A DNA stretch of 60,160 nucleotides, the filler included. It is 4 parts of 4 records of this genome, joined end to end, with 100 filler letters (N's around TTAATTAATTAA, not from the genome) between each part and the next. Parts side by side here need not be neighbours in the genome. Positions count along the whole stretch, not along the records: positions 34,788 to 53,194 come from DRR723986_8933; 3 more parts are not named here. One strand, 5' to 3'. This document shows positions 36,347 to 55,724 of the stretch, piece after piece; within the stretch, counting starts at the first letter, position 1, and every line of letters begins with the position of its first letter. The position numbers and the translations under genes were made by a program. The notes beneath the pieces are model-generated. The model was not told where the DNA came from, made no database searches, and worked only from the letters and a program-made list of their open reading frames with translations.

Positions 36347-36363
36347 CTGCGAGAGAAAACCCC

Positions 36364-36945: not shown

Positions 36946-36956
36946 ACGCAACGCAA

Positions 36957-37943: not shown

Positions 37944-38935
37944 ACACACGTATACATGGCAGTACCGATGAGCACGGGCCGGTGCCCTTTGACTTCTCGA
38001 GCAATGCCAATGCAGTTGGGCCTTGCCCTGTGGTGTTGAACGCAGTTCAGCAGGCTGACGCACTGCGTTACCCCGATCCGAATTACACGGCCTTGCGCAC
38101 TGCGCTTGCCGACTTTCATCAAGTGGATGAATCCAGAATTGTGGTTGCGGGCAGTGCAAGCGAATTCATTCAACGCCTGACCACCTGCCAGTGGCGCAAG
38201 GGCTGCAATTCTTACTGGGTGCCGCAACACGCTTATGGCGATTATGCGCACGCCGCGCAGGTGTGGGACATGGAACTGGTTGATGACCCAAGTCAGGCTG
38301 GCTTGGTGTGGTTGTGCAACCCTTCAAGCCCCTTGGGGCAAACTGAATCGACCGAGCTCTTGAAAATTGTAGAGGCCCACCCCGATGTGGTTGCCGTGCT
38401 TGATTGTGCTTATGAACCCTTGTGCCTTGATGAACAGGCCCGCACGGCCGTGCAAAAACGAGACCATTTGTGGCAATTGTGGTCGCCCAACAAGGCATTG
38501 GGCATGACAGGTATTCGCGGCGCTTACGCCATTGCACCCGTGGGTGAAAGCCGAGCGGTGTGCGCACTGAATAGCTTGGCACCTTCCTGGCCGATCGGCA
38601 CGCACGGGCAAGCAATGCTGCTTGCCTGGACCTTGCCGGAAACACAAGGCTGGTTGGCTGAAAGCCGCAGCGTGCTGGCGCAATGGAAACTGGATCTGCT
38701 GAATTGCCTTCACCAGCGGGGTTGGGAAACGATGCCCAGCATTGCCTCGTTTGTGTGTGCCAAAGCACCTTGCGGAATTGATGAGGTGCACCTGCGCGCG
38801 CGTGGCATCAAGCTGCGCGATGCCACCTCGTTTGGTTTGCCCGGCTGGTGGCGCTTGTGCGCGCAAGGGCCACAGGCCATGGCTGCGCTTTCAAGTGCGC
38901 TTGAATATTATCCTGCAAGGCAGGGCCACGAATGA
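37940..38935 (+). CDS. L-threonine-O-3-phosphate decarboxylase-like PLP enzyme
   Basis: HG..DFSSNAN, YPDP, CNPSSP, DCAY and SPNKALGMTGIR motifs; cob context. Confidence 0.85.
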   Translation: MNTRIHGSTDEHGPVPFDFSSNANAVGPCPVVLNAVQQADALRYPDPNYTALRTALADFHQVDESRIVVAGSASEFIQRLTTCQWRKGCNSYWVPQHAYGDYAHAAQVWDMELVDDPSQAGLVWLCNPSSPLGQTESTELLKIVEAHPDVVAVLDCAYEPLCLDEQARTAVQKRDHLWQLWSPNKALGMTGIRGAYAIAPVGESRAVCALNSLAPSWPIGTHGQAMLLAWTLPETQGWLAESRSVLAQWKLDLLNCLHQRGWETMPSIASFVCAKAPCGIDEVHLRARGIKLRDATSFGLPGWWRLCAQGPQAMAALSSALEYYPARQGHE

Positions 38936-40395
38936 CCGCAGTGTGTGTGATGGTTCTGGGTACCAGCAGCGGTGCAGGTAAAAGCTGGGTGACCACGGCA
39001 TTGTGCCGTCACTATGCACGCCTGGGTTTTAAGGTGGCACCCTTCAAGGCACAAAACATGAGCAACAATGCCCGCGTGGTGGCGGGTTTGCATGGCAGTG
39101 AAGGGGAAATTGGTTCTGCCCAGTATTTCCAGGCGCTGGCCGCATGTTGCGAACCGCATGTGCACATGAACCCGGTGTTGTTAAAACCCGAAGCCGACAC
39201 CAAAAGCCAAGTGGTCGTGTTGGGACAAGTGGACATGGCGTTGAGCAAGACCCCGTGGCGGGAACGCAGCGCCCAGGTGTGGCCGCACATCATGGCATCA
39301 CTGGATGCACTGCGTGCCGACCATGATGTGGTGGTGATCGAGGGGGCAGGTTCACCGGCAGAAATAAACTTGCACGCCAGTGACATTGTGAACATGCGCG
39401 TGGCCGTGCACGCGCAGGCGCGCTGCCTGCTGGTTGCCGACATTGACCGTGGTGGGGCTTTTGCCCACCTGTATGGCACCTGGGCTTTGTTGCCCACCGA
39501 GGAACGTACCTTGATTCGCGGTTTCGTGTTGAACAAATTTCGAGGTGATGCGGCCTTGCTGGCTCCCGCGCCCGAACTGTTGCAGCAGTTGACCGGTGTA
39601 CCCACCGTGGCCACCCTGCCCATGTGGTTTCAGCATGGTTTGCCGGAAGAAGATGGGGTGTTCGATGACCGCAGCCGTTCCACTGGCCGCGTGCACATCA
39701 CCATTGCTGTGCTGGCTTTTCCGCGTATCAGCAATCTGGATGAATTCCAGCCCCTGAAAAATATGCCCGGTGTGCGTTTGGTGTGGGCCCGCACACCTGC
39801 CGATTGTGCAGGCGCTGACTGGATTATTCTGCCGGGTTCAAAACACACCACAGCCGATTTGGCATGGTTGCGCGAACAGGGGCTGGACCAAACTGTGGCC
39901 GCGCATGCCGAACAAGGCAAACCCGTGTTGGGCATTTGTGGTGGCCTGCAAATGTTGGGTGAGGCACTGGTGGATGCGCACGGCATTGATGGCAATGCAC
40001 CGGGGCTGGGGCTTTTGCCTTTGGTGACCTGCTTTGAACCCGACAAAACAGTGCGCCGTACCACGCTGCTTTTTGGTGCCGTGCAAGGGCCTTGGGCCGC
40101 GTTGGCGCAGCAACTGGTCAACGGCTATGAAATTCACCATGGTCAAACCGCGCAACACCCGGCGCTGGCTCAAGTCGGGCAGCTTGCGCGCGAAGTGCTG
40201 CCCGGCTTGGGTTGGCAAAATACAGCGGGCAATGTGCTGGGTGTTTACGTGCACGGCCTGTTTGAAGATGCCGCAGTGTTGGCCGCATTGTTTGGCGCAC
40301 AAGCCCCCACGCTGGAAAGCGTATTCAACGGGCTGGCAGATTTTCTGGAACAGCATGTACAACCGGGCGTATTGAGCGCACTTATCGAACCCTAA
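38932..40395 (+). CDS. cobQ: Cobyric acid synthase
   Basis: GTSSGAGKS, FKAQNMSNN, EGAGSPAEINL, GICGGLQM and YVHGLF motifs. Confidence 0.97.
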   Translation: MTAVCVMVLGTSSGAGKSWVTTALCRHYARLGFKVAPFKAQNMSNNARVVAGLHGSEGEIGSAQYFQALAACCEPHVHMNPVLLKPEADTKSQVVVLGQVDMALSKTPWRERSAQVWPHIMASLDALRADHDVVVIEGAGSPAEINLHASDIVNMRVAVHAQARCLLVADIDRGGAFAHLYGTWALLPTEERTLIRGFVLNKFRGDAALLAPAPELLQQLTGVPTVATLPMWFQHGLPEEDGVFDDRSRSTGRVHITIAVLAFPRISNLDEFQPLKNMPGVRLVWARTPADCAGADWIILPGSKHTTADLAWLREQGLDQTVAAHAEQGKPVLGICGGLQMLGEALVDAHGIDGNAPGLGLLPLVTCFEPDKTVRRTTLLFGAVQGPWAALAQQLVNGYEIHHGQTAQHPALAQVGQLAREVLPGLGWQNTAGNVLGVYVHGLFEDAAVLAALFGAQAPTLESVFNGLADFLEQHVQPGVLSALIEP

Positions 40396-40416
40396 TTTTT
40401 CAGGTACACAGCACCC

Positions 40417-41469
40417 ATGCCATTTGATTTACCCCTTGTTCAAAACCCCTGCAGTGCTGTTTTGCAAGCACGGATCCAGGCCTTGCTTGACAACAAAACC
40501 AAACCGCTTGGTTCATTGGGTCGGCTTGAAAAACTGGCCGTTCAAATAGGCCTGGTCTTGGGCACTGAGAGCCCTGCTCTGGAACAGCCGCAAATGCTGG
40601 TGTTCGCAGCCGACCATGGTTTGGCACAGCGCGGGGTGTCCGCCTACCCCAGCGATGTGACCTGGCAAATGGTAGAAAATTTTCTGGCTGGTGGTGCGGC
40701 GGTCAGTGTACTGGCACGCCAGCATGGCTTGAATTTGGGCGTGGTCGATTGCGGTGTTCGCCATGACTTCACGGCGCGCCCCGGTTTGTTGATTCGCAAA
40801 ATTGGATATGGCACGGCTGACAGCCTTGAAGGCCCGGCCATGTCGATTCATCAATGCGAACAGGCACTGATCAACGGTGTTGAGTTGCTTCGCAACCTGC
40901 CTGGCAACGTGCTGTTGTTGGGGGAAATGGGCATTGGCAATACATCGGCTGCAGCGCTTTTGATGGCGTGTTTCACCGGGTACGACATTGCTGAATGCAC
41001 CGGCGCGGGCACGGGTTTGAATCCCGAAGCTGTTCAGCGCAAAACGAGTATTTTGCGGCAGGTTTTAAGCCAGCATGCCAAGGCACAAACACCGCTTGAA
41101 ATACTTGCAGCCGTTGGCGGGTTTGAAATTGCAACGATGGTGGGTGCGGTGTTGCAGGCCGCTAGTGAACGCCGTGTGGTGGTGGTTGATGGTTTTATAG
41201 CCACGGCAGCAGTGCTTGTTGCGCATGCAATGTGCCCCAAGGTGTTGGCGTACTGTGTTTTTGCGCATCAATCGGGCGAGCAAGGCCACCGCAAGATGCT
41301 GAAATTCTTGAATGCACAACCCTTGCTTGATCTTGGTTTGCGTTTGGGTGAAGGCTCTGGTGCAGCTTTGGCCTGGCCCTTGCTGGTGTCGGCTTGTAGC
41401 ATACTGCGCGACATGGCCAGTTTCGATTCAGCCAGCGTGTCGCGCGCAGGCGATTCAACACAGGCGTAA
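40417..41469 (+). CDS. cobT: Nicotinate-nucleotide--dimethylbenzimidazole phosphoribosyltransferase
   Basis: TKPLGSLGRLE, ADHG, GEMGIGNT and LRLGEGSGA motifs. Confidence 0.97.
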   Translation: MPFDLPLVQNPCSAVLQARIQALLDNKTKPLGSLGRLEKLAVQIGLVLGTESPALEQPQMLVFAADHGLAQRGVSAYPSDVTWQMVENFLAGGAAVSVLARQHGLNLGVVDCGVRHDFTARPGLLIRKIGYGTADSLEGPAMSIHQCEQALINGVELLRNLPGNVLLLGEMGIGNTSAAALLMACFTGYDIAECTGAGTGLNPEAVQRKTSILRQVLSQHAKAQTPLEILAAVGGFEIATMVGAVLQAASERRVVVVDGFIATAAVLVAHAMCPKVLAYCVFAHQSGEQGHRKMLKFLNAQPLLDLGLRLGEGSGAALAWPLLVSACSILRDMASFDSASVSRAGDSTQA

Positions 41470-41475
41470 TTTCCC

Positions 41476-42309
41476 ATGCTTCAACTGCTCACTCAATTCA
41501 TTCGCCACTACCTGCTTGCAGTGCAGTTTTTCACACGCATACCCATTACCGGAAAATTGGCTGAGTGGGTGGGCTTCTCGCCCGCCATGTTGCGTGCCAG
41601 TGCTGCACATTTTCCCGGTGTGGGCTGGCTAGTAGGGGCAACATGTGCAGCCGTGTTGTGGGGCTTGGTGTGCGCCTTGCCTGAAGTACCTGCTGCAAGC
41701 TGGGTGGCAGCCGTGTTGTGCACCGTGTTCAGTGTAATGTTGACGGGTGCGTTTCATGAAGACGGTTTGGCCGACACGGCTGATGGCTTGGGTGGCAGCA
41801 TGAACCGCGAACGCGCGCTCGACATCATGAAAGATTCCCGTGTGGGCACCTATGGCGCACTGGCGTTGGTGCTGGTGGTGTTGCTTAAAATCAGCCTGCT
41901 GACCATGTTGTTGCAAATCGCAACCTTGCCAATTACAGCGGTGGGCGTGTTGGGTGCGCATGTGGTGTCGCGCCTCTTGCCCTTGTTCATTATTCGCAGT
42001 TTGCCGCATGTGGGCGACACACATCAATCCAAATCAAAGCCACTGGCTGATCAAATTGGCAACCGTAGTTTAGCGGTAGCCACGGTGTGGGCTGCGATGG
42101 TTTTTGGCCTGTTGTATGCGCTTGCACCGGGCGCACCCTGGTGGGCAGCTGCTTTGGGCGCAGTATTGGCACTGGGTTATATGTGGCGCTTGCTAAAACG
42201 CAGGCTGGGCGGATTTACTGGCGACGGTTTGGGGGCCACACAACAAGTGTGTGAGGTGGTTTTTTACCTGGGCTTGTTATTGGCTTGGCCGCTGGCTGCT
42301 GTGTCATGA
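41476..42309 (+). CDS. cobS: Cobalamin 5'-phosphate synthase
   Basis: FFTRIP, TGAFHEDGLADTADG, MKDSRVG and GGFTGDGLGA motifs. Confidence 0.97.
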   Translation: MLQLLTQFIRHYLLAVQFFTRIPITGKLAEWVGFSPAMLRASAAHFPGVGWLVGATCAAVLWGLVCALPEVPAASWVAAVLCTVFSVMLTGAFHEDGLADTADGLGGSMNRERALDIMKDSRVGTYGALALVLVVLLKISLLTMLLQIATLPITAVGVLGAHVVSRLLPLFIIRSLPHVGDTHQSKSKPLADQIGNRSLAVATVWAAMVFGLLYALAPGAPWWAAALGAVLALGYMWRLLKRRLGGFTGDGLGATQQVCEVVFYLGLLLAWPLAAVS

Positions 42310-42848
42310 AGCTGTGGTTGGTTCGCCATGCCCCGGTGCTGTTACCTGCAGGAATTTGCTACGGCGCAAGCGATGTATTGGCCGATGATGCGGCCAGCCT
42401 GCAAGCGGCCCGGCAAGCAGCAGAACAATTGCCGCCAGGCTTGCATGTGCGTGTTTCAGGCCTGCTGCGCGCGCAACAACTTGCAAACCATTTGGCGGCG
42501 CTGCGGCCCGATCTTCCCACCGCAATTGTAGATGCCCGCTTAAATGAAATGAACTTTGGTTGCTGGGAAATGCAGCCTTGGGACGCAATTCCACAAACCG
42601 CCTTCGACGCCTGGCTGGCTGATTTTGATCACCATTGTTTTGGCGGTGCCGAAAGCACACACGTGGTGTTGCAGCGCGTGGGGAAGGCTTTAAGTGGCGT
42701 GCAGAACGATGAGTTGTGGATTACCCATGCAGGTATCATTCGCGCGGTGCAATGGATTGTTGAACACGGTTTTGAACCTGTTCAAAAGGCTGAAAACTGG
42801 CCGAAAACGGTGGTGGAGCCAGGGGGTTTATTGAGTGTCAATTATTGA
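42306..42848 (+). CDS. Histidine phosphatase, CobC-like alpha-ribazole phosphatase
   Basis: LVRHA, L.EMNFG.WE, GAES and THAG motifs; ATGA overlap with cobS. Confidence 0.85.
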   Translation: MKLWLVRHAPVLLPAGICYGASDVLADDAASLQAARQAAEQLPPGLHVRVSGLLRAQQLANHLAALRPDLPTAIVDARLNEMNFGCWEMQPWDAIPQTAFDAWLADFDHHCFGGAESTHVVLQRVGKALSGVQNDELWITHAGIIRAVQWIVEHGFEPVQKAENWPKTVVEPGGLLSVNY

Positions 42849-42851
42849 TAA

Positions 42852-44750
42852 TCACGCTACCCACCTACCGGCCCCTTCAATCACCAACCCCCTCGGCCCA
42901 CGCACTTCATTCTGGTTTGCATAGGCCCAGTTCAAGGCCTTGCACATTTCATCTGAAAACTCGTTGTCGTGTTGCTGATGCAAATCCATGAACTGTTTGG
43001 ATGCCACCATGGCGCGCAATTCCTCAAGCAGGCCCGGCTCGTTGATGTAACGCACCACGCCATGCACATAGTTTTCAACTGAATCGGCCACGCAGTATTC
43101 AGCCAGTCCTAGCGAAGCCAAAATATCGTAGTCACTGCGCGAATGGGGTTCGGCACCGATCAGGCTGATCACAGGCAGGCCCAACACCATGCAATCGATG
43201 GTGCTGGTGGCGTTGCCAAACGGGAAGGGGCTGAGTGCCAGGTGGTGCTGGTTGAGCATGTTCAGGTAGGCTTCATAACCCGTGCGGCGGGCCACCACGG
43301 CGGTGGGGAAGAAGCTGCGCAGGCGTTTCTCGGTTGAAAGGTGACCAACACCATATTCATTGGGGAAGAAGGTGAAGCGAATCGGCTTGGCCGAGAGGCG
43401 TTCAATCTCCTTCAGCGCAGTCATGAAGCCCAGGTTGATCTTCATGGTGTTGCAGGGCACCGCAATCGACACCACAGCGTCATCCAGCACCGCGGGTGGT
43501 GGCAGTTTCAAGTCTTTGTGGGCCTCGGCCACATTGCCAATTTCACTCTCCAGAATCAACATGTTCTCATTCACCACGCCGGAGCCGCCAAATACACGGG
43601 TGGTCACAAATGCTACGTCCATCTCGCTGCTAAAGCTGCTGGCCGGGTGGCCAAAGCTCATGGCTTGTAGTGGGGCCCAGCGCAGGTTTGCGAGTGAAAT
43701 TCCCCAAGAGCGCATGCCCACGCTCATGAACCAGGCAATGTCGGGTGTACATTGGTTCAGCACCGGTTGCAGGTTCATTTCTTCTTCGGGCACTTCAATG
43801 AAGTCATCGAACAGGCCAATGGATTGGTCATCTACATCGGCTTTCATTGACACCATCACCAGGTAGTAATCGAGTTTCAGGCGTTTGATCATGGGGGCAT
43901 ACCAACGGTACATGGCGTGCACCGACTTGAACGTTTCGGCAATCACCACCATCACGGGTTTGTTGTCGATGTTCCCGGTGTGTCGAACGCTGCCAGCGGG
44001 TTTGACCTGAATGCCTTTGGCCTTGTGCACACGCTTGAACCAGTGGTTCAGGTGCTTTTTAATTTCATGCTTGCGCGGGCTGGTACTGTAGCTGCACAGC
44101 ATCCAGATATTGGAGATCAAAGCGCGGTATTGGTCCAAGGGGCGCAGTGCACTGTAGGGGTTGTACTCTTCCAGCAGGAAGGTGCGGCCAGCGTCGCCTG
44201 TCACGGTCAAGGGCAGGCGGTCGAGCAACAGGCCAATCGCCAACAGGGCCGAGGTTTCCGTGCTTTCCAGAGTCAGTTCTACCAGGTCGGCGGGGTCCAG
44301 ATCGCCCACGCTGGCCAGCAGCAGGGCGCGTACCAAAGCGGGGTTGTCTGTCAGTTGTTTGGCTTTGCGCTCGTGTGCCTTGTTCAGCAACAGCTTGAGT
44401 ACTGCGCGGCTGCTGCCGTAGCCGGACACCTCAAAAACATGACTCATGAAGCGCTTTTGTTTGGTCAACACCAGCAAGCTATTCAAGCTCAGGGTGTGCT
44501 TCAGGTCGGTGAGTACATTCACGTATAGCGCGGCAAACCGCGTGCACAATTCGGTTGTGCCTTGTATGTTCAATTGCATCAAGCTGGCATACGGTTTGTT
44601 CTGGCACTCATTCACCAACACAGCCAACTGATTGATGGTTTTTTCTGCGTCCTGCTGTTGAATGAATACCCCACTCTCGATGTTTTGCAATTTTGCGTCA
44701 ATGTCATCAAACAGCGGTTGTAGTTGTTCTTCCAGGCTTGCTGTGGTCAT
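42852..44750 (-). CDS. HMW1C/NGT-like cytoplasmic protein glycosyltransferase (GT41)
   Basis: Colinear family motifs: MLCSY..KHEIK, KPVMVV.E.F...HAMYR, RWAPLQAMSFGHPAS, TMKIN, Y..YL, PFPFGN....D and G.EPH.R.D; no signal peptide. Confidence 0.85.
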   Translation of the reverse strand: MTTASLEEQLQPLFDDIDAKLQNIESGVFIQQQDAEKTINQLAVLVNECQNKPYASLMQLNIQGTTELCTRFAALYVNVLTDLKHTLSLNSLLVLTKQKRFMSHVFEVSGYGSSRAVLKLLLNKAHERKAKQLTDNPALVRALLLASVGDLDPADLVELTLESTETSALLAIGLLLDRLPLTVTGDAGRTFLLEEYNPYSALRPLDQYRALISNIWMLCSYSTSPRKHEIKKHLNHWFKRVHKAKGIQVKPAGSVRHTGNIDNKPVMVVIAETFKSVHAMYRWYAPMIKRLKLDYYLVMVSMKADVDDQSIGLFDDFIEVPEEEMNLQPVLNQCTPDIAWFMSVGMRSWGISLANLRWAPLQAMSFGHPASSFSSEMDVAFVTTRVFGGSGVVNENMLILESEIGNVAEAHKDLKLPPPAVLDDAVVSIAVPCNTMKINLGFMTALKEIERLSAKPIRFTFFPNEYGVGHLSTEKRLRSFFPTAVVARRTGYEAYLNMLNQHHLALSPFPFGNATSTIDCMVLGLPVISLIGAEPHSRSDYDILASLGLAEYCVADSVENYVHGVVRYINEPGLLEELRAMVASKQFMDLHQQHDNEFSDEMCKALNWAYANQNEVRGPRGLVIEGAGRWVA

Positions 44751-44769
44751 GGCTTAGACAATCTCACAT

Positions 44770-45912
44770 TTAAAGTTGAATGGTGCGGCCACTGGTCGAG
44801 GCTTGTGCGATCGCCTGGCTCAAGGTGAGGCCTTCTGCAGCGACACCAGTCGACAAGGTGTAGGCATTCAGCTTCTCATCGCGCATGGCTTGTGCAATGT
44901 CGGCGTAGTAGTTGGCAAAGGCTTCGATAAAACCCGAGGGGTGGCCGGCCTTGAAGCGGTTGTAGCGGGGCTGTGCGGTTATTTCACTGCCCGTTGAAAT
45001 TCGGTCAAGCAGCATGCGGTTGCCTGCTTCATCAGCGGCCTCAATCATTTCGGGGCTTTCCTGATGCCATTGCAAACTGCCCTTGGTACCAAACACGCGT
45101 ATGCGCAAGCCATTGCGATAACCCAACACGGCTTTGCCATACCACGCATTGACCATCAGGTTGTTGCTGTATTGAATGACAGCATCCACTTCATCAATCA
45201 GCCCCGGCGATACGTTGGTGATTGCGCGTTGCCAGGCATTCACGGCTTGTGGTGTGTTGCCGCACACAAAGTTCACCAGGCTGTGCAGGTGCACAAACAG
45301 GTCGAGCGACACACAGCTGATGTCGCCGTCTTCCAGCCGCCACGATTGAATGGCGTGGGTTTTGTTTTGGTTGCTCAGCCGCATGTATGAGTCTTGTGGC
45401 ATTTCCACCATCACCTTGAATACGCTGCCAATGGCCCCGCTTTCCACACGGCGTTTCATCTCGCGCACAGCGGGGTAGCCGGTGTAATTGAAGATTGAAA
45501 ATACCTGGGTGTTGTCGGGCTGGACACGGGCCAGTAGTTCTTTGCATTCCTGCACATTGGCCAACAGGGGCTTGTCGGAGATGACCCGCAAGTTGTGGTC
45601 GAGTGCCAAATGAATGTACTGCGCATGCGACTTGATCGGCGTGGCAATCACCACCGCATCCACTTCGTGCGCTACAGCATCGATCAGCGCTTCTGCGCTG
45701 GGGTACAGTTTGTCGGCCGGCACATTGTACTGGCGGCCAGATTCAGCATTGAATTCCGGATTGCGGCTAAAGCACCCCGCCACCAGGTCGAATTCATTGT
45801 CCATTTTCATGGCAATTTCATGCACGCGGCCCACAGCCGAATTCACACCGCCGCCTATCATGGCGACCCTGATGGGTTTGTGCAGTGGTTTCAGTGCGTT
45901 GTATTTGCTCAT
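44770..45912 (-). CDS. Cytoplasmic Gfo/Idh/MocA oxidoreductase
   Basis: IRVAMIGGG..SAVGRVH, SDKP, NYTGYP and AGHPSGFIEAFAN motifs. Confidence 0.88.
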   Translation of the reverse strand: MSKYNALKPLHKPIRVAMIGGGVNSAVGRVHEIAMKMDNEFDLVAGCFSRNPEFNAESGRQYNVPADKLYPSAEALIDAVAHEVDAVVIATPIKSHAQYIHLALDHNLRVISDKPLLANVQECKELLARVQPDNTQVFSIFNYTGYPAVREMKRRVESGAIGSVFKVMVEMPQDSYMRLSNQNKTHAIQSWRLEDGDISCVSLDLFVHLHSLVNFVCGNTPQAVNAWQRAITNVSPGLIDEVDAVIQYSNNLMVNAWYGKAVLGYRNGLRIRVFGTKGSLQWHQESPEMIEAADEAGNRMLLDRISTGSEITAQPRYNRFKAGHPSGFIEAFANYYADIAQAMRDEKLNAYTLSTGVAAEGLTLSQAIAQASTSGRTIQL

Positions 45913-45936
45913 GTTCAGTGTCCTTTGCGTGGGGCT

Positions 45937-47082
45937 TTAACCATTGAAGGTGTAAAGCCTGCGCTGTGTGGCAAGGCTGGCCAGTGTTTGAAGTTCAACC
46001 GCGTTGGTGCAGCGTGCAAACAGCAGGGCGATGCGGCCTACAGGGCTGGACGCAATAAAGTCGCCAGTGGCGGCAATGGGCACCCAACGCTCCATGTGTA
46101 CCGGGTGATTAAAGTGCAGGTGTTGCAACAAGCCTTCGTGCGGCAGGGTCAGTGTGTGGCGCAAAATGAAATTCTGCTTCAAGGGGCCAGGCGCAGCACG
46201 CTGCCCCAAAAAGCCTTTGGCGTAGCTGGCCACGTAGGGAAAGCCGGTTGAAAGTTCAATCAACTGGCTGTACAAATCGCCGGGGCAACGGCGGGTAATT
46301 TCAACCAGCCAGAATTCATTGCCTTTCAGCAAAAACTGCGTGTGCACCAAACCATCGCACAGGCGCAGGCTTTGGGCCAAATGTTCAATTTCTCGCCGAA
46401 TGCGTGTGTGCACCTCCACCGGAAAATCGATGGCCAGGTGGCTGGTGTCGACCACAAAGCGGTTGGCCGAGCCATGTTCTATCACCACAAAGTCTTGCGC
46501 CACGCGGCCATTCACTACAAACGCAGAATGGCTGTACAACTGGCCTTCCACATATTCTTCGACCAAACAATCACCACTTCTCGATTCGGCTTTGGCGGTG
46601 CCAATTGCCTTGTGCAGCTGACTGGTCTCGCCGGCCTGCACCACTGTAATGCCGCGGCCACTGTAGGCATCGACCGGTTTTACAATCACGGCGCAAGCAG
46701 GTGTTTCATTATTGCCAAACACACGGGGTACCGACAAACCCTCGCGTTGTGCATAGGTGCGAAACTTCTGCTTGTGGTTGATGGTCTCTGTGGCCTCCAG
46801 GCGATCAATGCCGGGAAAGTGCAAGGTTTCCGACACTTCTGCGCAGGAGTAATACGAACGATCATTGCAACCGGGCACCAGGTACTCGATGCCCAGTTGG
46901 GTGCATAAATCGGCCAGAGCGGCGGGGCTGGAATAATCCAGTTGTTGGTAACCCGGCGTGGCCTTGGCCAAAAAGTCGTTGGGCTTGCCACCCGCAAACA
47001 TCACCGTGTGCCCGGCATTGCGCAGGTAGTTCAGGATAGGCCCTGACGAGAAATTGGTATCGACCAACAGCACCTTAGCCAC
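45937..47082 (-). CDS. ATP-grasp domain protein (putative amide ligase)
   Basis: IVKPVDAYSGRG, EEYVEG and HTQF...EITRR motifs; GTG start with GAGG upstream overlaps the aminotransferase stop. Confidence 0.85.
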   Translation of the reverse strand: MAKVLLVDTNFSSGPILNYLRNAGHTVMFAGGKPNDFLAKATPGYQQLDYSSPAALADLCTQLGIEYLVPGCNDRSYYSCAEVSETLHFPGIDRLEATETINHKQKFRTYAQREGLSVPRVFGNNETPACAVIVKPVDAYSGRGITVVQAGETSQLHKAIGTAKAESRSGDCLVEEYVEGQLYSHSAFVVNGRVAQDFVVIEHGSANRFVVDTSHLAIDFPVEVHTRIRREIEHLAQSLRLCDGLVHTQFLLKGNEFWLVEITRRCPGDLYSQLIELSTGFPYVASYAKGFLGQRAAPGPLKQNFILRHTLTLPHEGLLQHLHFNHPVHMERWVPIAATGDFIASSPVGRIALLFARCTNAVELQTLASLATQRRLYTFNG

Positions 47083-48193
47083 GGCTGGCCTCGTCAATAA
47101 TCACGCAAATGCGCGCCACATCTTCCAGCGGCAGATCAGGGTAAATCGGCAGGCACAACACTTGTTCAGCGGCTTTGTGGGCATTGGGCAAATTACGTGG
47201 CGCGGCGGAGGACAAACCACGGTACATGGGCATGCTGCTGATCAATGGGAAAAAATAGCGGCGACCATGGACACCGTGCTCTTGCAAACGGGCGTACAGC
47301 GCGTCGCGCGTAATTGGGTAGTGGGCATTCACGAAAATCGGAAAGTAAGCGCCGTTCCATTCCACATTCTCGGGCACAGCCATGTGTTCGATTCCGGGGA
47401 CATTGGCCAGCAATTCGCGGTACAGGGCCTGTATGCGGTGGCGCTTTTCAATGGCTTGGTCCACATACTTCAATTGCAGCATGCCCATGGCGGCATTCAG
47501 TTCGCTCATCTTGCCGTTGATGCCCGGTGCCATCACGGTGACCTCGTCGGCAAAGCCGAAGTTTTTCAGGTAATCAATGCGTTGTTTGGTTTTGGCGTCT
47601 TTGCAAACAATGGCGCCACCTTCAAAGGTATTGAACACTTTGGTGGCATGCAGGCTGAGCACCGACAAATCGCCGGCATTCAAAATGCTCTCGCCGTTTT
47701 GCTTCACGCCAAAGGCGTGGGCCGCGTCGTAAATCACCTTCAAGCCATACACATCGGCAATGCGTTGAATCTCGGTGGTGTTGGCAGGCAGGCCATAGCA
47801 ATGTACCGGCAAAATGGCACTGGTTTGCGGCGTGATGGCTTCTTCAATGCGGCGGGGGTCCAGGTTCAGGGTGACCGGATCCACATCCACAAACACCGGC
47901 TGCAGGTCGTTCCACAACAGGGAATGGCTGGTGCACACGAATGAATAGGGCGTCGTAATCACTTCGCCTTGAATGCGCAGGGCTTTCAACGCAGTCATCA
48001 AAGCAATGGTGCCATTGCAAAACAGGGAAATGAAAGGCACACCCAAATATTCGCACAGCGCCTTTTCAAGCTGCTGGTGATAGGGGCCGTTGTTGGTCAG
48101 GGTTTTGCTGTCCCAAATCTGTTCTAGGTAGGGTATGAACTCCGCAAGCGGCGGCAGCGCTGGCTGCGTCACATAAATTTTCCGATGATCCAT
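47075..48193 (-). CDS. DegT/DnrJ/EryC1/StrS sugar aminotransferase, VioA-like
   Basis: IYVTQP.LPP, LTNNGP, NGTIAL, DAAHAFG, SLHATKVFNTFEGG and GINGKMSE motifs. Confidence 0.92.
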   Translation of the reverse strand: MDHRKIYVTQPALPPLAEFIPYLEQIWDSKTLTNNGPYHQQLEKALCEYLGVPFISLFCNGTIALMTALKALRIQGEVITTPYSFVCTSHSLLWNDLQPVFVDVDPVTLNLDPRRIEEAITPQTSAILPVHCYGLPANTTEIQRIADVYGLKVIYDAAHAFGVKQNGESILNAGDLSVLSLHATKVFNTFEGGAIVCKDAKTKQRIDYLKNFGFADEVTVMAPGINGKMSELNAAMGMLQLKYVDQAIEKRHRIQALYRELLANVPGIEHMAVPENVEWNGAYFPIFVNAHYPITRDALYARLQEHGVHGRRYFFPLISSMPMYRGLSSAAPRNLPNAHKAAEQVLCLPIYPDLPLEDVARICVIIDEASRG

Positions 48194-48370
48194 ACCCAAG
48201 CCTTTCTATTTGATTTTCTTCATTATCCCGGCTGGATTACACAATCATTTGTTAAATATCAGGCCTCTTTCCCCTTCAGAAAAATGTTTTCCCCCATTCA
48301 GGCTTGCTATAGTTCGCATTGAATTTGGCTTGAAAACGGCCTTTATTGATCTATTTACCGGGAATTCACC

Positions 48371-49228
48371 ATGTTTGTTGCCGGCAACGGTGTGGGTTGG
48401 CTTGAGGCCGTTATTTTGGGGCTGATCCAGGGGCTTACTGAATTTTTGCCCATTTCATCGAGTGCGCATTTGCGTATCATTGGACCCATGTTGCCCTCAG
48501 GCCTCGATCCCGGCGCAGCTTTTACGGCCATTACCCAGCTGGGAACCGAACTCGCGGTGCTGGTGTACTTCCGCCACGACATCGCCCGAATTTTTCTGGC
48601 CTGGTGTGGGTCCTTCAAACGCAATGCCGCCAGTGGTGTGCCAATGAGTCCCGATGCCCGTTTGGGGTGGCTGGTCATTGTGGGCACCTTGCCCATTGCT
48701 GTTTTGGGCCTGTTGTTTCAAGATCTGATTGAAACCTATCTGCGCAATTTGTACCTGACTGCCATCATGTTGATTGTGTTTGGCCTCATCCTTGGTTTCG
48801 CCGACAAAGTGGGCAAGCGCCATACCGAGCTGAGGGAAATGACCTGGCGCGACGGCATTGTGTTTGGTTTTGCGCAAGCCTTGGCACTCATTCCCGGTGT
48901 GAGCCGGTCGGGCGGAACCATCACCGCAGGTTTGCTGATGGGCTACACCCGAGAGGCCGCGGCGCGTTATTCCTTCTTGCTCGCGGTGCCCGCGGTGTTT
49001 GCTTCCGGCTTTTACCAGTTGTACAAAAGTTGGGGCGTGGCCGGCCCGGTCAGCCCGGCCAACACGGCCTTGGCAACCTTCATTGCTTTCTTTGTGGGCT
49101 ATGCCGTCATTGTGTGGTTCCTCAAGCTGGTCAGTACGCGTGGCTACGGCCTGTTTGTGGTGTACCGTGTGGTGCTGGGTGTGGTGGTGTTGGCGCTGTT
49201 GGCTGCCGGGGTGTTGCAGCCGCTTTAA
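48371..49228 (+). CDS. uppP: Undecaprenyl-diphosphate phosphatase (BacA)
   Basis: [22 protein letters not shown] and AARYSFLL motifs. Confidence 0.96.
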
Positions 49229-49245
49229 AGTTGCAGGAACGCAGT

Positions 49246-50625
49246 ATGCAGGTGTTGTGGTTCAAACGGGATTTGCGTTTAAGCGATCACCTGCCGCTGT
49301 TTGAAGCCATGCGCAATGCCAAGCATCACGGGCTTGTGCTGCCCTTGTACATTCACGAACCCAGCCAAATTGCAGATGCGCACACCGCGCGCCAACACCA
49401 GTTGTTTGTGCATGAATGCCTGGATGATTTGAAGCAACAGTTTGCCGATGTGGGCGGCTATCTGCATGAAGAATTGGGCGAGGCCGTCGAGGTGTTGGCT
49501 CGCCTGCATGCACAGCTCAAATTTACCCACGTGTGGGCACATCAGGAAACCACGCAGCTTGCACAATACCGACGCGATCAAGCCGTGGCGGCATGGTGCA
49601 AAAGCATGGGTGTGGCGTTTCATGAATTGCCCCAAAACAATGTGCAGCGTGCCACCTTCAAGGCCAATCCGTTTGCTGAGAAAATTAATTTTCAAACTTA
49701 CCTGGACCGGGCCGCTCAAGAAGAAATCAAAAACCCGGCCGGGCGAAATTTGCAGGCCTTCTTCGCACCCAAACCCCCTGTTGAATTCAACCGTGCCACG
49801 GTGCCGCTGGCTGCAGGCGATGACAAACCACTGCGCATGAAAGGTGGCCGTGCCCAGGCCCGGGCAGTGGCCGCGAAATTCTTTACTCCAGCCAAATTGA
49901 GAAGTTATCCCTTCTCGATCTCCAGCCCCTTGAAAGCATGGAATGGTTGCTCGCGCCTGTCGCCTTACTTGGCCTACGGCGTGGTCTCTGATCGGGAAGT
50001 GCTTCAAAAGCTCAACGCCCTGGTGAACACGGTGCATGGGCAGGGTGATGTGACACACATTGCAAAAGTTGAAGATGCCGCGCGGTTTTATGTGGACAGG
50101 CTGATTTGGCGGCAAGGTTATTTGCAGCAGCTGGAGAACCACACGGGGTTGGAAACCGATGCTTTTTACTGCGACGAACCAGCAGAGGTGAATCAGGAAT
50201 TCTTGAATGCTTGGCAGCAGGGCCGAACGGGCTTTGCCTACGTAGACGCTTGCCAGCGCTTTTTACAACAAACAGGTTGGCTGAACATGCGGGCGCGGGC
50301 CATGTTGGTGTCGTTTGCGTGCGTGCAATTGGGTTTGCCCTGGCAACCCGTGGCTTTGTATTTGGCACAGCAGTTTCTCGACTTCGAGCCCGCCATTCAC
50401 TATGGTCAGGTGCGCATTGCAAGTGGCACCAGCCACTTTTCGCAAATGCTGGTGTATGACCCCTTGAAACAACAGGCCGAGCAAGATCCCAAAGGCGAGT
50501 TTGTGAAGCGTTGGTTGCCGGAATATGGCACTGCGCGCTATCCAGCGCCCATGGTCGACAATGCGGAATCACTAAGGCTTGGCAAGGCACGCTTGCATGC
50601 CATGCGCCAAAACCGGCTGTTATGA
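49246..50625 (+). CDS. Cryptochrome/photolyase family flavoprotein (divergent)
   Basis: WFKRDLRLSDH, SRLSPYL, W..GRTG...VDA and DP.G.FVKRWLPE motifs; ATG at 49246 after AGGA. Confidence 0.9.
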   Translation: MQVLWFKRDLRLSDHLPLFEAMRNAKHHGLVLPLYIHEPSQIADAHTARQHQLFVHECLDDLKQQFADVGGYLHEELGEAVEVLARLHAQLKFTHVWAHQETTQLAQYRRDQAVAAWCKSMGVAFHELPQNNVQRATFKANPFAEKINFQTYLDRAAQEEIKNPAGRNLQAFFAPKPPVEFNRATVPLAAGDDKPLRMKGGRAQARAVAAKFFTPAKLRSYPFSISSPLKAWNGCSRLSPYLAYGVVSDREVLQKLNALVNTVHGQGDVTHIAKVEDAARFYVDRLIWRQGYLQQLENHTGLETDAFYCDEPAEVNQEFLNAWQQGRTGFAYVDACQRFLQQTGWLNMRARAMLVSFACVQLGLPWQPVALYLAQQFLDFEPAIHYGQVRIASGTSHFSQMLVYDPLKQQAEQDPKGEFVKRWLPEYGTARYPAPMVDNAESLRLGKARLHAMRQNRLL

Positions 50626-51285
50626 ACAGGTGTTGCCACGAAGCCCTGCACTGATGTACTCGTGAAACAGCCGGCGCATTTCCTTCAAGCCACCGCTTTG
50701 GTTGACCAAGGGCAATAGCCTTTCATCGTGCATCACCATTGAAAAGTCGGCCAGCCCGTGAATAGCCGTATTCACGGCCAAATGCACTTTAAAACGCAGC
50801 TGTGCTTCAGAGTATTGCGGGAAAAATTGTCGCAAAGTGGGCGCAAACACATCCATGTAGGGGTTGAAGTAGCGGGTCAGAAACCGCTGTCCCTGTTCGC
50901 CGGTTTGCCAGGTCAGGCGGGACAGAAACTGTATGCACACCGCACCGGTCTCGCCGCTTGAAAACAGTTGCACAAAGGGATCAAAAATCAGCTCGCACAA
51001 GCGGGTCCATTCTCTGTGCTCGGGCGCGTTGCGCGCAAATTCGGTGTGGGCCTGCTTGCAGTGAACATCAAGCTGACTTGTCACAAAATCCACCACTTCT
51101 TCCACCAATCGATCTTTGGTTTTGAAGTGATAGTGCACTGCTGAGCGGTTGCCCTGACCTGAAAGCTGCCGAATTTTGCTTAAGGTGACACCTTCAATGC
51201 CATGCTGTGCAAATTCATTCAACGCAATCCGTAACAGCTGTTCGCGAGTATCAATGAGAAGTGCGGCGTCGGCAGATTTGTTCAT
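50620..51285 (-). CDS. TetR/AcrR family regulator (PsrA-like)
   Basis: TREQLL..A...FA..G...N.SAVHYHF.TK helix-turn-helix. Confidence 0.92.
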   Translation of the reverse strand: MNKSADAALLIDTREQLLRIALNEFAQHGIEGVTLSKIRQLSGQGNRSAVHYHFKTKDRLVEEVVDFVTSQLDVHCKQAHTEFARNAPEHREWTRLCELIFDPFVQLFSSGETGAVCIQFLSRLTWQTGEQGQRFLTRYFNPYMDVFAPTLRQFFPQYSEAQLRFKVHLAVNTAIHGLADFSMVMHDERLLPLVNQSGGLKEMRRLFHEYISAGLRGNTCS

Positions 51286-51322
51286 GTGTTTGTTTTTGTG
51301 AGTAAATTTCCGCTTGCCTGAT

Positions 51323-51340
51323 TTAATACCAAAGTATTAA
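51323..51340. promoter_or_regulatory. Probable TetR operator in the divergent promoter
   Basis: Perfect TTAATAC-CAAA-GTATTAA, lying between TTGCCT (51314-51319) and TAATCT (51338-51343). Confidence 0.65.
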
Positions 51341-51386
51341 TCTAGAGTGATTAAATACAATATAACCATAAAATCAGGAGACATGC

Positions 51387-52847
51387 GTGAAACTTTCAAA
51401 AGTATTCACGGCGGTGGTTGCAGGTGCAGCTCTTGGCTTGCTGGGTGCCTGTTCGTCTGAAGACGGGACTGTGGCAACTGGCGCCTCGGCATCGTCATCG
51501 GCCAGCAGCAATGTACTCAGCAGTGAATCATTGGCCCAGGCCATGGGTGGCAGCGAGACTCCCTTGGGCCTGGGGTGCGGGTGGATTGCGGCCAGCGATC
51601 CCGACAAAGCGAATATTGCGTTTCCTGACAGTGAGGCCAAGTACTGGGTGGCGGCTGCCCCTGTGTCGCCCCAAACCCGGTTGAGGATTGATGGCCGTTA
51701 CCCGGATGCCCGTTATTTTTCCTACAACGCATACGATGCGGCGCTGCGCCCAACAGATGCGGTGGCCGACTTTGAACTCACACCTTCTGATCAAGGTCGT
51801 GAAGGCAATCCCTTCGCGCGCAAGGGTGCCAAGCCAGGTGGTGCTTACACGGCTTATCTGGAATATGGTGCATCTCCGGTTCAAAACCCGGAGGTACAAC
51901 GCAAACCCAACACCTTTTACACCGGTGAAATTGGTTTGGGCCCATTGAATATTCCAAACGGTTTGGCGGTGTTCATTTATCGGGTGTATGTGTCGAATGC
52001 CGGCGAGTTTTTTGATGGTGGTGTGGGTTTGCCCGCGCTCACGCTGGAAACTGCAGACGGCAGTCGTGAGTTGGGAACACTGCCAAATTGTGCTGAACCA
52101 TTCTTGCCGAATTTTGGAGGTGCTGCGCCACCCCTGGGCCTGAATGAGGTATTGCTGGGGCTGGACTACCCCAATCAGTTGGCTTTACCTTTCCCAACGG
52201 CCACCAATCCGCCCAATACACTGAAATTTTTTAGCCTGGGTGACACCGCATTTCGAATTGCAGGCAATGTAACCGGTCAAGACACCAGCATGCTGGGCGG
52301 CCGGGTCGATTCAGGCTCGGGCGGCTTTTTGAGCAATGTACACAATGCCTACACCAGCACTGGTTTTGCCCGCCGCTACGGCAGCATTGCCATGGTGCGA
52401 TCCAAAGCCCCCACCTACCGTGGACAGCCCGGCGTGGAGTTTGGGCAAGAGCAGTTGCGTTACTGGTCATTGTGCGGCAATGAATTTGCAACCCAACGCT
52501 TCACCGATTGCGCGGCTGATTATCAGGTGCCATTGGATGACCAGGGATTTTTCACGGTGGTGATTTCCGATCCAGCTGATCGACCGGCCAATGCCACAGC
52601 CGAGAACGGATTCCTGTGGTTGCCTTGGGGGCCGTATCCTGATCAACTCCTGTTGTATCGCCACATGCTGCACAATCCGGGATTCGCTGAGGCGATCCAG
52701 AATGTGGAGAAGGGTGACGCATTGGCCGACGTCATGAAAGATTTCGCGCCTGTCGGCATTTATTGCGACCCAAACGTTTTTACACAAAGCAATCGCAGTG
52801 GCGAGGTGTTCGCCCTGTGTGAACAAGATCAAAACACCAATCGATAA
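51387..52847 (+). CDS. Lipoprotein of unknown function
   Basis: GTG after AGGAG; lipobox LLGAC, Ser/Ala linker, aromatic motifs FPD..AKYW, YPDARYFSY and RYWSLC. Confidence 0.8.
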   Translation: MKLSKVFTAVVAGAALGLLGACSSEDGTVATGASASSSASSNVLSSESLAQAMGGSETPLGLGCGWIAASDPDKANIAFPDSEAKYWVAAAPVSPQTRLRIDGRYPDARYFSYNAYDAALRPTDAVADFELTPSDQGREGNPFARKGAKPGGAYTAYLEYGASPVQNPEVQRKPNTFYTGEIGLGPLNIPNGLAVFIYRVYVSNAGEFFDGGVGLPALTLETADGSRELGTLPNCAEPFLPNFGGAAPPLGLNEVLLGLDYPNQLALPFPTATNPPNTLKFFSLGDTAFRIAGNVTGQDTSMLGGRVDSGSGGFLSNVHNAYTSTGFARRYGSIAMVRSKAPTYRGQPGVEFGQEQLRYWSLCGNEFATQRFTDCAADYQVPLDDQGFFTVVISDPADRPANATAENGFLWLPWGPYPDQLLLYRHMLHNPGFAEAIQNVEKGDALADVMKDFAPVGIYCDPNVFTQSNRSGEVFALCEQDQNTNR

Positions 52848-52873
52848 CCACTCATACTTGAGGAGACTACGAA

Positions 52874-53194
52874 ATGGCAGTGCAAAAGTTGAAACACGGG
52901 TTGCTGGCCGCAGCGATCGTTTTGGGGAGTGGCGCAGCACTGGCCAATGACCTGTCTGAACTGGGCAAAAGCCTGACCCCAGTGGGCGCCGAGAAAAAAG
53001 GCAATGCGGCTGGCACCATTCCGGAGTGGACTGGTGGTCTGGTCACTGTACCCAAAGGGTTTGATCCGGCAAAAGGCTATATCAATCCTTTTGCAGATGA
53101 AAAACCACTGTTCACCATCAGCGCGGCAAACATGGCGCAGTACGCAGCCAATTTGACACCGGGCCAAATGGAAATGATGAAGCGTTACCCCACT
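52874..53194 (+). CDS. DUF1329-family periplasmic protein (3'-truncated)
   Basis: Signal peptide, then LG..LTPVGAEK.GN..GTIPEWTGG and PFADEKPLFTI. Confidence 0.85.
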
Positions 53195-54709: not shown

Positions 54710-54743
54710 GGTTGCGGGTGAACCGCTCTTTCGGACCCTTGGC

Positions 54744-55691: not shown

Positions 55692-55696
55692 ATGAA

Positions 55697-55724
55697 GAAA
55701 GCCGACCCAGATAGGTCGGCTTTC
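55697..55724. terminator. Bidirectional terminator between convergent genes
   Basis: GAAAGCCGACC-CAGATA-GGTCGGCTTTC, 11-bp stem. Confidence 0.75.

Follow-up and report, generated by a model that had tools for sequence, protein, structure and literature searches.

Four tightly spaced genes of Limnobacter raise the question of which sugar is moved, and onto what, by an enzyme that has the scaffold of a cytoplasmic N-glycosyltransferase (NGT) but is encoded together with an amino-sugar tailoring pathway. The genes are found in a stretch of 60,160 nt including filler (hereafter the window, along which all coordinates are counted), within the part that comes from DRR723986_8933 (34,788-53,194). 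The source organism is Limnobacter, going by the source names of close homologues, and statements on the host genome rest on five related Limnobacter genomes. In gene order, the operon encodes a DesI/VioA-like pyridoxal phosphate (PLP) sugar aminotransferase, an ATP-grasp ligase, a Gfo/Idh/MocA oxidoreductase (Gfo), and an HMW1C-like glycosyltransferase (Table 1). HMW1C-like enzymes are known for using simple UDP-hexoses only and for the reading of N-X-S/T sequons, which makes them a main tool of cell-free and cytoplasmic glycoengineering. The reading that we favor, to which we give about an even chance of being right, is that the operon would form a cytoplasmic protein glycosylation module that puts an N-acylated viosamine-type sugar on a protein, most likely flagellin.

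A first-pass annotation, made by a model from the letters of the window, had described the last gene product as an NGT-type enzyme carrying the HMW1C/ApNGT motif series, to be checked with HMW1C and GT41 profiles and by superposition on ApNGT. The profiles are matched weakly. The transferase hits the NGTferase model NF049992 at 1.1e-62 with 212.5 bits for a cut-off of 1000 (212-220 bits in three Limnobacter genomes), and it scores 20.7, 17.7, and 21.8 bits with the Pfam models HMW1C_N, HMw1_D2, and Glyco_transf_41, whose gathering scores are 27, 26.2, and 25. These scores are sub-threshold, and family membership rests on pairwise and structural evidence. Residues 54-580 align with ApNGT (3q3e) at 4.4e-50. 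The AlphaFold2 (AF2) model, obtained from a 28-row alignment with a pLDDT of 91.8 and a pTM of 0.91, superposes on ApNGT, and the first 10 Foldseek ranks are all ApNGT or AaNGT chains (TM 0.80-0.87, 23-25% identity, E 1e-29 to 2e-26), followed by SPINDLY (SPY) and the O-GlcNAc transferase OGT at TM ~0.5. As modeled, the 632-aa protein has the HMW1C fold and is a GT41 enzyme in the broad sense.

The functional residues were mapped by HMMER alignments and a multiple alignment, in AaNGT numbering and with the residue list given in the accessible part of PMC10507012. The transferase keeps the catalytic or nucleotide-binding residues His276, Arg280, Gly369-His370, Lys440, Tyr500, and Asp524, as do the other eight main Limnobacter copies aligned, and Arg177 is retained as Arg178. 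In place of His214-Asp215 it has Ser-Asn (Ser-Asn or Ala-Asn across all nine main Limnobacter copies aligned). The donor site is remodelled: Ser277 is replaced by Ala (HS to HA), Thr437 by Asn, Gln468 by Asn, His494 by Arg, and Asn520 by Thr, the last within a change of Thr519-Asn520-Gly521 to Ala-Thr-Ser (TNG to ATS). According to the same part of that paper, the Arg177/Asp215 dyad of AaNGT reads, with His214, the +2 Ser/Thr of N-X-S/T, and the D215A variant has no activity; contacts to the pyrophosphate and the glucose are made by Ser277 and Asn520, and the glucose-contacting set consists of Ser277, Asn520, and Gln468 (PMC10507012). Judged by its residues, the transferase keeps the family chemistry but neither of the two features that define an NGT, i.e., the sequon reading and the glucose pocket, and it is not a classical NGT. 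Thus, of the motif series announced by the first-pass annotation the catalytic motifs are there and the sequon-reading His-Asp motif is absent, and the label NGT-type is appropriate for the HMW1C fold but not for the sequon site, which is replaced, nor for the position of the protein outside the classical clade.

This position is seen in two surveys. An exhaustive HMMER search returned 406 cluster representatives at E <= 1e-30, the best 150 of which all score above the level of the ApNGT match. The residues were surveyed in 149 ids (P0048 to P0196), of which the 138 with a length of 560-800 were used. Catalytic and nucleotide-binding residues are kept in 116 to 138 of these 138 representatives (Lys440 138, Gly369 138, Arg280 137, Asp524 137, His370 136, His276 135). 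His214 is present in 5/138, Asp215 in 16/138, and Ser277 in 5/138, with Ala at position 277 in 113/138. Position 520 is Asn in 121 representatives, Ser in 6, and Thr in 2; Ser or Thr at this position marks the joint clade of Limnobacter and its sister clade. Full-length homologues are rare in samples of ~400 genomes each from the class, the phylum, and the order, and the flanks of 21 homologue loci outside Limnobacter were examined, nine of them non-classical. The other 12 carry the classical signature (His-Asp, His-Ser, Thr-Asn-Gly) and form one clade (SH-aLRT 99-100); four of these 12 loci adjoin open reading frames (ORFs) of 1,144-1,770 aa and three adjoin ORFs of 884-891 aa. The Limnobacter transferases make up a separate clade with a support of 100, well apart from the classical one, in quick IQ-TREE trees (LG+G4, SH-aLRT only) from which the long or partial rows G988 and G124, and in the second tree also G1007, were left out. 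By sequence, the transferase is a member of a large branch, so far uncharacterised, that lies apart from the classical NGTs.

These data bear on the simplest alternative, that the transferase works as an ordinary NGT, with UDP-glucose as donor for the N-glucosylation of adhesins, and that the three upstream genes are an unrelated adjacent pathway for a lipopolysaccharide sugar. The full-length homology to ApNGT and the retention of Arg178 agree with it. We nevertheless hold it to be highly improbable, since Asp215 is changed to Asn where D215A inactivates AaNGT, His214 is missing, Ser277, Asn520, and Gln468 are changed, the protein falls outside the clade supported at 99-100, a paralogue that does show the classical signature is encoded separately in one Limnobacter genome (G024), and the adjacency of a DegT-family aminotransferase gene (DegT) recurs in several unrelated lineages, as described below. 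The second HMW1C-like gene of G024 (L017, G024:C4, ~8587-10446 as counted within that locus) has the full classical signature and groups within the classical NGT clade; its direct neighbor is a gene for outer-membrane efflux (OEP), and 5 kb off there is a 1,507-aa ORF without Pfam match. As G024 carries both genes, both enzyme types can coexist in one genome.

The Pfam matches uphold the earlier family calls for the three other operon proteins. The aminotransferase matches DegT_DnrJ_EryC1 at 2.4e-100, and its PLP lysine is residue 185, in HATK. Its best NCBIfam model is DesI (TIGR04427, 3.1e-90), with 303 bits for a cut-off of 650, a score below the cut-off that does not settle the regio- or stereochemistry, and its best solved structure is also DesI (2po3, 5.8e-65), i.e., the dTDP-4-keto-6-deoxyglucose 4-aminotransferase. 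Scyllo-inosose aminotransferases and NtdA come behind DesI, at 1e-38 to 1e-45. The aminotransferase shares 91% identity with the copy of G014 and 67% with that of G738, another genus, and both of these copies adjoin an HMW1C-like gene. The ATP-grasp protein matches ATP-grasp_3 (1.2e-06) and also ATP-grasp_4, and weakly PylC and the L-amino acid ligase 3vot. The oxidoreductase matches the N-terminal (6e-15) and C-terminal (1e-16) GFO_IDH_MocA domains, with 3v5n, of unknown function, as its best solved relative (3.8e-46). The ATP-grasp and Gfo genes are found together in every locus read far enough, and both are absent in L013, L014, L071, and L074. We considered the Gfo protein as the supplier of the keto-sugar for the aminotransferase, in the style of WbpB/WbpE, GnnA/GnnB, or NtdC/NtdA, and rejected this idea because Gfo is missing in G014 and L074, which have 91-98% identical aminotransferases, and in G738, where the aminotransferase is 67% identical. 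The window contains no VioB-type gene. RmlB (TIGR01181) is found above the cut-off in 5/5 Limnobacter genomes, at other loci.

In the mechanism that we propose, RmlA and RmlB, encoded elsewhere in the genome, would supply dTDP-4-keto-6-deoxyglucose, which the DesI/VioA-like aminotransferase would convert into a 4-amino-4,6-dideoxyhexose of the viosamine type. The ATP-grasp ligase would use a carboxylic acid or an amino acid to acylate the 4-amino group, and the Gfo oxidoreductase might modify the acyl group or a ring hydroxyl, a step that is less certain than all the others. Being soluble, the HMW1C-fold GT41 enzyme would move the finished sugar from the nucleotide directly onto the protein. 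The acceptor would most likely be flagellin, modified before its export, and the locus would then be a flagellin glycosylation island placed away from the flagellar genes, like the viosamine island of Pseudomonas syringae. The identity of the donor, the order of the steps, the acceptor, and the O- or N-link are inferred from the genes and their neighbors. None of the four operon proteins has a signal peptide and their 19-residue hydrophobic windows are all <=1.61, and the four proteins are predicted to be soluble.

The variation of the locus within the genus speaks on the donor. The transferase is present in 23 of 25 Limnobacter genomes, the two genomes without it being 72% and 70% complete, and no full-length homologue was found in 16 other genomes of the order. 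The wide flanks of eight Limnobacter genomes and 13 Limnobacter-type metagenome contigs contain at least five gene arrangements, which differ also in the identity of their transferases to that of the window. The locus thus behaves as a cassette, in which the aminotransferase and the transferase hardly ever change and the genes placed between or behind them are exchanged. Type a, that of the window, consists of aminotransferase, ATP-grasp, Gfo, and transferase genes (transferase 82-99% identical); L. thiooxidans also has this four-gene type. Type b has, in addition to the genes of type a, an FkbM methyltransferase, a second methyltransferase, and an FA_desaturase-family gene (60-64%). In type c (G014, L071), the aminotransferase and transferase genes are accompanied by a methyltransferase, a second DegT, and WbqC (50%). 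Type d (G008) begins with the aminotransferase, a malate synthase, and FA_desaturase genes, continues with the transferase (44%), and goes on with a methyltransferase, GNAT, two unassigned genes (weakly GH32/GH130-like), and WbqC. Type e (L074) consists of aminotransferase, transferase, and a PglD-like hexapeptide N-acetyltransferase (83%). A variant with an extra FkbM gene behind the transferase was found in L075 and L076. The aminotransferase gene adjoins the cluster in seven of the eight Limnobacter genome loci, the exception being G007.

The ATP-grasp and Gfo pair is absent from types c, d, and e, and its slot is filled elsewhere by the PglD-like N-acetyltransferase (L074), by GNAT (G008), or by ketoacyl synthase III (KAS III) genes (G738). 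Because this slot is shared with N-acylating enzymes, we assign the N-acylation to the ATP-grasp ligase, by position only. The N-acylated 4-amino-6-deoxy NDP-sugar put forward at first sight of the sequence gains from these swapped-in genes, which point to an N-acylated 4-amino-4,6-dideoxyhexose, and from the RmlB found in all five genomes. Two genomes illustrate how the transferase varies. G014 and G016 have nearly the same identity to the window in uppP (92.6 vs 93.4%), photolyase (83.9 vs 83.4%), and aminotransferase (91.4 vs 91.1%), but their transferases share 50.3 and 81.8% with it, respectively. Since the flanks are equally distant and the transferases are not, the transferase diverges with its tailoring genes and not with the genome. 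That the transferase and its donor-site residues change with the tailoring genes is as expected if the finished sugar is read. By analogy, the pattern of these loci is that of strain-variable surface-glycan loci.

The same variation is relevant to the order of events. The transferase might add a plain hexose or deoxyhexose, and the neighboring enzymes might modify the sugar once it is on the protein. Modification after transfer is documented, in the accessible part of PMC11833859, for the flagellin glycans of Clostridioides difficile and for those of b-type of Pseudomonas aeruginosa, and it would fit L081, where no aminotransferase adjoins the set of ATP-grasp, Gfo, and methyltransferase genes, and G007, likewise without aminotransferase. 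However, aminotransferases of the DesI/VioA type act on nucleoside diphosphate (NDP)-4-keto sugars, VioT of P. syringae takes only the fully N-acylated dTDP-sugar (PMC3927599, as far as its text was available), and the donor-site residues and the sequence of the transferase change together with the tailoring genes. We consider such late modification quite improbable, though not as far-fetched as an ordinary NGT.

The association of these genes, which the first-pass annotation had taken for a system, is also found in other lineages (G738, G366, G054, L078, L081, L082, L083, L085, and L088), so the lack of co-occurrence that would have counted against that annotation is not what is seen. Among the sampled genomes, a DegT gene adjoins or lies within 7 kb of 3/9 non-classical homologues vs 0/12 classical ones. 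The adjoining DegT of G738 is the 67% identical aminotransferase, with two KAS III genes behind it; the non-classical homologue of G366 also has DegT as its direct neighbor, and in G054 the DegT gene is 6 kb off. A metagenome scan with two peptide patterns typical of the Limnobacter clade, which is blind to neighboring genes, gave 24 loci, of which 11 are non-Limnobacter with 25-34% identity. DegT is immediately upstream of the transferase in L078 (with WbqC downstream), L083, L085, and L088, and L082 has a 64% identical aminotransferase 6 kb off. The DegT-linked homologues fall in at least five separate tree lineages. In L081, homologues of the type-b genes were found for ATP-grasp (42%), FkbM (45%), Gfo (41%), FA_desaturase (36%), and methyltransferase (33%).

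The acceptor is suggested by the neighbors of these distant relatives. Flagellar genes, identified by Pfam and tblastn, are present at four of the 11 distant metagenome loci (L073, L079, L081, and L083). In L073 a flagellin gene is followed, after a 43-nt gap, by the transferase gene. The order in L079, which matches representative P0050, is flgK, flgL-like, flagellin, and transferase, and that in L083 is fliD, fliS, DegT, and transferase. In L081 the module sits between two flagellin genes: flagellin, a 1074-aa gene, transferase, methyltransferase, ATP-grasp, FkbM, Gfo, an FA_desaturase-like gene, another methyltransferase, and flagellin. L073 and L079 belong to the immediate sister clade of the Limnobacter clade, and the joint clade has an SH-aLRT of 100. 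The conjecture of a flagellin acceptor, made earlier by analogy with P. syringae, is strengthened by these four loci, which include members of the sister clade. Flagellins are encoded in 5/5 Limnobacter genomes, Maf (PF01973) was found in 0/5, and the 56.8 kb around the flagellin genes of G016 contain no homologue of any of ten cluster proteins. Since neither a Maf nor a cluster homologue near the flagellins was seen, the operon is the only candidate flagellin glycosylation system found in Limnobacter. On this gene-neighborhood evidence, flagellin is the best-supported acceptor for Limnobacter and the sister clade, not for the whole branch, with a chance of about one in two. A complex prediction for the transferase and a flagellin of G016 gave scores of 0.33, 0.09, and 0.23 (mark 0.32) and weighs neither way.

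In G016 there are five short flagellin paralogues of ~287 aa (L053-L055), and three of the five genes have sigma-28-like promoters (TAAAG-N15-GCGTTAA or TCGATAA). Each of these flagellins has 8-9 N-X-S/T sequons, compared with 4.6-4.9 expected by shuffling (p 0.02-0.07, for paralogues that are not independent), and no sequon enrichment is found in the L073 and L079 flagellins. Sequon enrichment was set aside as evidence, being too weak to use. The retention of Arg178 and the sequon counts of the flagellins do leave room for a link to Asn. The Limnobacter and sister-clade enzymes would then form an unrecognised class of flagellin glycosyltransferases derived from the NGT scaffold, which would transfer a viosamine acylated with an amino acid or another acid directly to the protein, possibly to Asn. 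We regard this stronger version as improbable; if true, it would provide the first N-linked glycan on a bacterial flagellin.

Several observations weigh against a viosamine-type module acting on flagellin. The operon of G016 is ~2.2 Mb from the flagellin genes, and the cluster is not near flagellar genes in the Limnobacter genomes examined; a flagellar gene within ~10 kb was found at 0/21 loci of the sampled genomes. No sigma-28-like promoter that convinced us was seen before the aminotransferase gene, by eye and guided by the three flagellin promoters of G016. No flagellin was found in G063 (100% complete) and G981 (94% complete), both of which have non-classical homologues, so the non-classical branch as a whole cannot be flagellin-specific. 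On the side of the sugar, the operon itself has neither a nucleotidyltransferase nor a 4,6-dehydratase, and the nucleotide carrier is therefore assumed; the Gfo oxidoreductase has no assigned pathway step; and the aminotransferase is not an invariable partner, being absent beside the G007 cluster and from the 15.6 kb of L081. All scores of the transferase with named Pfam and NCBIfam families are below the curated cut-offs. Finally, the evidence that links the genes to each other and to flagellin is all gene neighborhood.

Some of these points lead to another acceptor. The same module, with the same kind of donor, could act on one or several other proteins, such as an exoprotein of two-partner secretion (TPS), a pilin, proteins of the outer membrane, or, as reported for HmwC of Yersinia, a large number of cytoplasmic proteins. 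The characterised GT41 enzymes all act on varied proteins, as stated in the accessible parts of PMC10507012, PMC11329713, and PMC9306852, TPS-domain exoproteins are encoded in 5/5 Limnobacter genomes, the Limnobacter operon is unlinked to flagellar genes, and G063 and G981 have non-classical homologues in genomes where flagellin was not found. As no flagellin was found there, the HMW1C-like enzymes of these two genomes must have another acceptor. Against a different protein in Limnobacter, no candidate acceptor gene stays beside the cluster across the genus, whose flanks vary, the TPS genes are 17 kb to megabases off, and flagellins are the only acceptor-type genes that were found beside close relatives. 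This alternative is on the unlikely side, yet of some weight. The homologues of G063 and G981 have no DegT neighbor, and the three DegT-linked genomes all have flagellins. In G063 (L039) a hexapeptide acyltransferase gene is placed 3 nt behind the non-classical HMW1C-like gene, and in G981 (L056) the non-classical gene is near a sulfotransferase-like gene.

The acceptor might also be no protein at all: the enzyme could glycosylate a lipid, a small molecule, or the primer of a polysaccharide, and the locus would be a cluster for a glycolipid or a natural product. Variant clusters in which the transferase has a membrane FA_desaturase-family gene directly upstream point in this direction, as do the divergent position of the operon from uppP (undecaprenyl-pyrophosphate phosphatase) in several genomes, the loss of the sequon-reading Asp, and the pairing of Gfo and DegT, which recalls inosamine and kanosamine chemistry. 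However, the neighborhood contains no flippase, polymerase, ABC exporter, or polyprenyl-phosphate transferase, the aminotransferase resembles DesI more than the inosose enzymes and is found without a Gfo gene in G014, L074, and G738, and relatives are located within flagellar loci. We rate a non-protein acceptor as improbable.

Returning to the favored module with flagellin as acceptor, it can be compared with known systems. Classical HMW1C-like NGTs (HMW1C of Haemophilus influenzae, ApNGT, AaNGT; CAZy GT41) are like the Limnobacter transferase in the three-domain architecture of an all-alpha N-terminal domain with a GT-B fold (TM 0.80-0.83 along the full length, 24-25% identity), in the catalytic lysine and most nucleotide-binding residues, and in being soluble enzymes that transfer from a nucleotide sugar by themselves. 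Unlike them, the Limnobacter transferase sits with sugar-tailoring enzymes and not beside large exoprotein genes or rimO/agt-like neighbors. A 2014 review of the family distinguishes two HMW1C-like subsets, TPS-linked and isolated, and the string 'flagell' is absent from the portion of it that was accessible (PMC3983070). HmwC of Yersinia was reported as an O-GlcNAc transferase on many proteins (PMC11329713, accessible part), which is a precedent for departing from N-glucosylation within the family. PMC3958885 treats HMW1C and flagellin glycosylation separately.

In P. syringae pv. tabaci, the viosamine island (vioA, vioB, vioS, vioR, vioM, acp, vioT) resembles the Limnobacter cassettes in its VioA-type aminotransferase, its N-acylation and methylation genes, and its dedicated transferase. 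In the Limnobacter operon the HMW1C-like enzyme is the only transferase and must therefore have the protein itself as its substrate. FgtA is an orthologue of OrfN. VioT is, unlike the Limnobacter enzyme, a 1,173-aa OrfN homologue that caps a rhamnose chain, according to the accessible part of PMC3927599, in which the island is also described as strain-variable and away from flagellar genes, and the KAS III genes of G738 encode enzymes of the same type as VioS. A description of FgtA places it in GT2 (PMC11833859, accessible part). N-acylation is carried out in P. syringae by KAS III, an acetyltransferase, and a reductase, and in the Limnobacter operon presumably by the ATP-grasp ligase. Three further representatives of the HMW1C-like search (P0066, P0122, and P0126; 1,120-1,736 aa) match the query in two or three stretches, which suggests a tandem or fused scaffold; a scan of genome contigs with P0066 (1,184-aa tandem HMW1C-like), aimed at the membership of VioT/OrfN, gave one irrelevant locus.

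The flagellin islands described in silico in Enterobacteriaceae also contain GT41, DegT, FkbM and S-adenosylmethionine (SAM)-dependent methyltransferases, and fatty-acid-type genes, and they are strain-variable (PMC4875605). By their description, their GT41 enzymes are of the SPINDLY/OGT type (COG3914), mostly fused to a methyltransferase and encoded between flagellar genes, and none is reported as HMW1C-like in the part of PMC4875605 at hand. FlmG of Caulobacter crescentus is similar in being cytoplasmic, with a helical N-terminal domain that binds flagellin and, C-terminally, a GT-B domain, and in being enough by itself to glycosylate flagellin; it differs, by description, as a pseudaminic acid O-glycosyltransferase with a tetratricopeptide repeat (TPR) N-terminal domain and a CMP-nonulosonic acid donor (PMC7591256, accessible part). 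The Caulobacter control genome has a GT41 Pfam match. In the openly accessible literature searched, subscription papers and supplements not being covered, we found no enzyme of the HMW1C fold linked with flagellin or with a pathway of the viosamine type, and nothing on flagellin glycosylation in Limnobacter. The novelty claimed at first is smaller, since the GT41/DegT/FkbM islands had been catalogued before (PMC4875605) and the P. syringae viosamine island (PMC3927599) is functionally a close analogue. The system is best filed with the flagellin and protein glycosylation islands, among which it is a new variant rather than a category of its own.

The most interesting outcome of the analysis is the family-level picture. 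The locus points to a large and unstudied non-classical branch on the HMW1C scaffold, several lineages of which are coupled to bespoke amino-sugar pathways and flagellin genes. If the favored reading is true, a third enzyme type would take part in bacterial flagellin glycosylation, beside Maf/FlmG and the GT2-type Fgt, and there would be natural NGT-fold enzymes that take bulky N-acylated deoxy-amino sugars and are useful for engineering. The Limnobacter cassettes, with one scaffold and at least five tailoring sets, would be a natural series for mapping donor specificity.

Table 1. Features of the operon and of its upstream region (window coordinates).
Feature	Coordinates	Strand	Remarks
DesI/VioA-like PLP sugar aminotransferase, 372 aa	47075..48193	-	ATG at 48193; first operon gene
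ATP-grasp ligase, 381 aa	45937..47082	-	GTG start; putative N-acylating enzyme
Gfo/Idh/MocA NAD(P) oxidoreductase, 380 aa	44770..45912	-	Pfam N and C domains
HMW1C-like GT41 glycosyltransferase, non-classical by its residues, 632 aa	42852..44750	-	Last operon gene
Intergenic region between aminotransferase and divergent uppP	48194..48370	.	Presumed operon promoter region

The layout of the operon is as it had first been read, and the recomputed spacing is the same: four minus-strand ORFs in one direction, separated in gene order by an 8-nt overlap, 24 nt, and 19 nt. The overlap joins the start of the ATP-grasp gene and the stop of the aminotransferase gene (GTGGCTAA), and a longer, TTG-initiated frame of the aminotransferase extends to 48199. 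The earlier statement that the HMW1C-like enzyme is the sole transferase also survives a search of the flanks: in the window they contain no further glycosyltransferase, no Wzx/Wzy/Wzm, flippase, polymerase, or exporter, and no obvious acceptor gene. Beyond 48371 lies uppP, divergent to the operon, and then a photolyase gene and a TetR gene.

Two assembled contigs of a run labeled as RNA-seq, 96-98% identical to the window, span 42875-45713 and 45722-48206 and run across all three gene junctions (transferase/Gfo, Gfo/ATP-grasp, and ATP-grasp/aminotransferase). The second one stops 13 nt before the aminotransferase start (48206) and leaves most of uppP uncovered, and two likely-DNA runs continue through uppP. 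This evidence, which consists of assembled contigs only and cannot show a transcript, strand, or level, hints weakly at joint expression of the four genes. A scan of 42500-48500 found one promoter-like site for 3.6 expected and 10 terminator-like sites for 8.5 expected, and is uninformative.

On its other side, the transferase gene is convergent with a complete-looking operon for the cobalamin lower ligand and adenosylation (36325-42848, plus strand), which encodes CobO/BtuR, CbiB/CobD, a class I/II aminotransferase, CobQ, CobT, CobS, and a CobC-like histidine phosphatase and ends 3 nt before the transferase stop. This flank is present in just 4/12 close Limnobacter loci, so the downstream neighbor of the cluster varies. 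The orf486 gene (51387-52847, plus strand) encodes a 486-aa predicted lipoprotein with a signal peptide and a lipobox cysteine, has no Pfam family, and is near the cluster in several Limnobacter genomes; it was considered as a conserved partner and rejected, as the loci of other genera contain no homologue of it. The region 54000-56000 of the window has a G+C content of 65.7%, compared with ~55% around it, and contains a short-chain dehydrogenase gene and a PfkB sugar kinase gene. Just before this region, a 179-aa ORF at 53300-53839 has only the C-terminal OB/TOBE domains of a MalK-type ATPase, and may represent a gene truncated where acquired DNA begins or ends.

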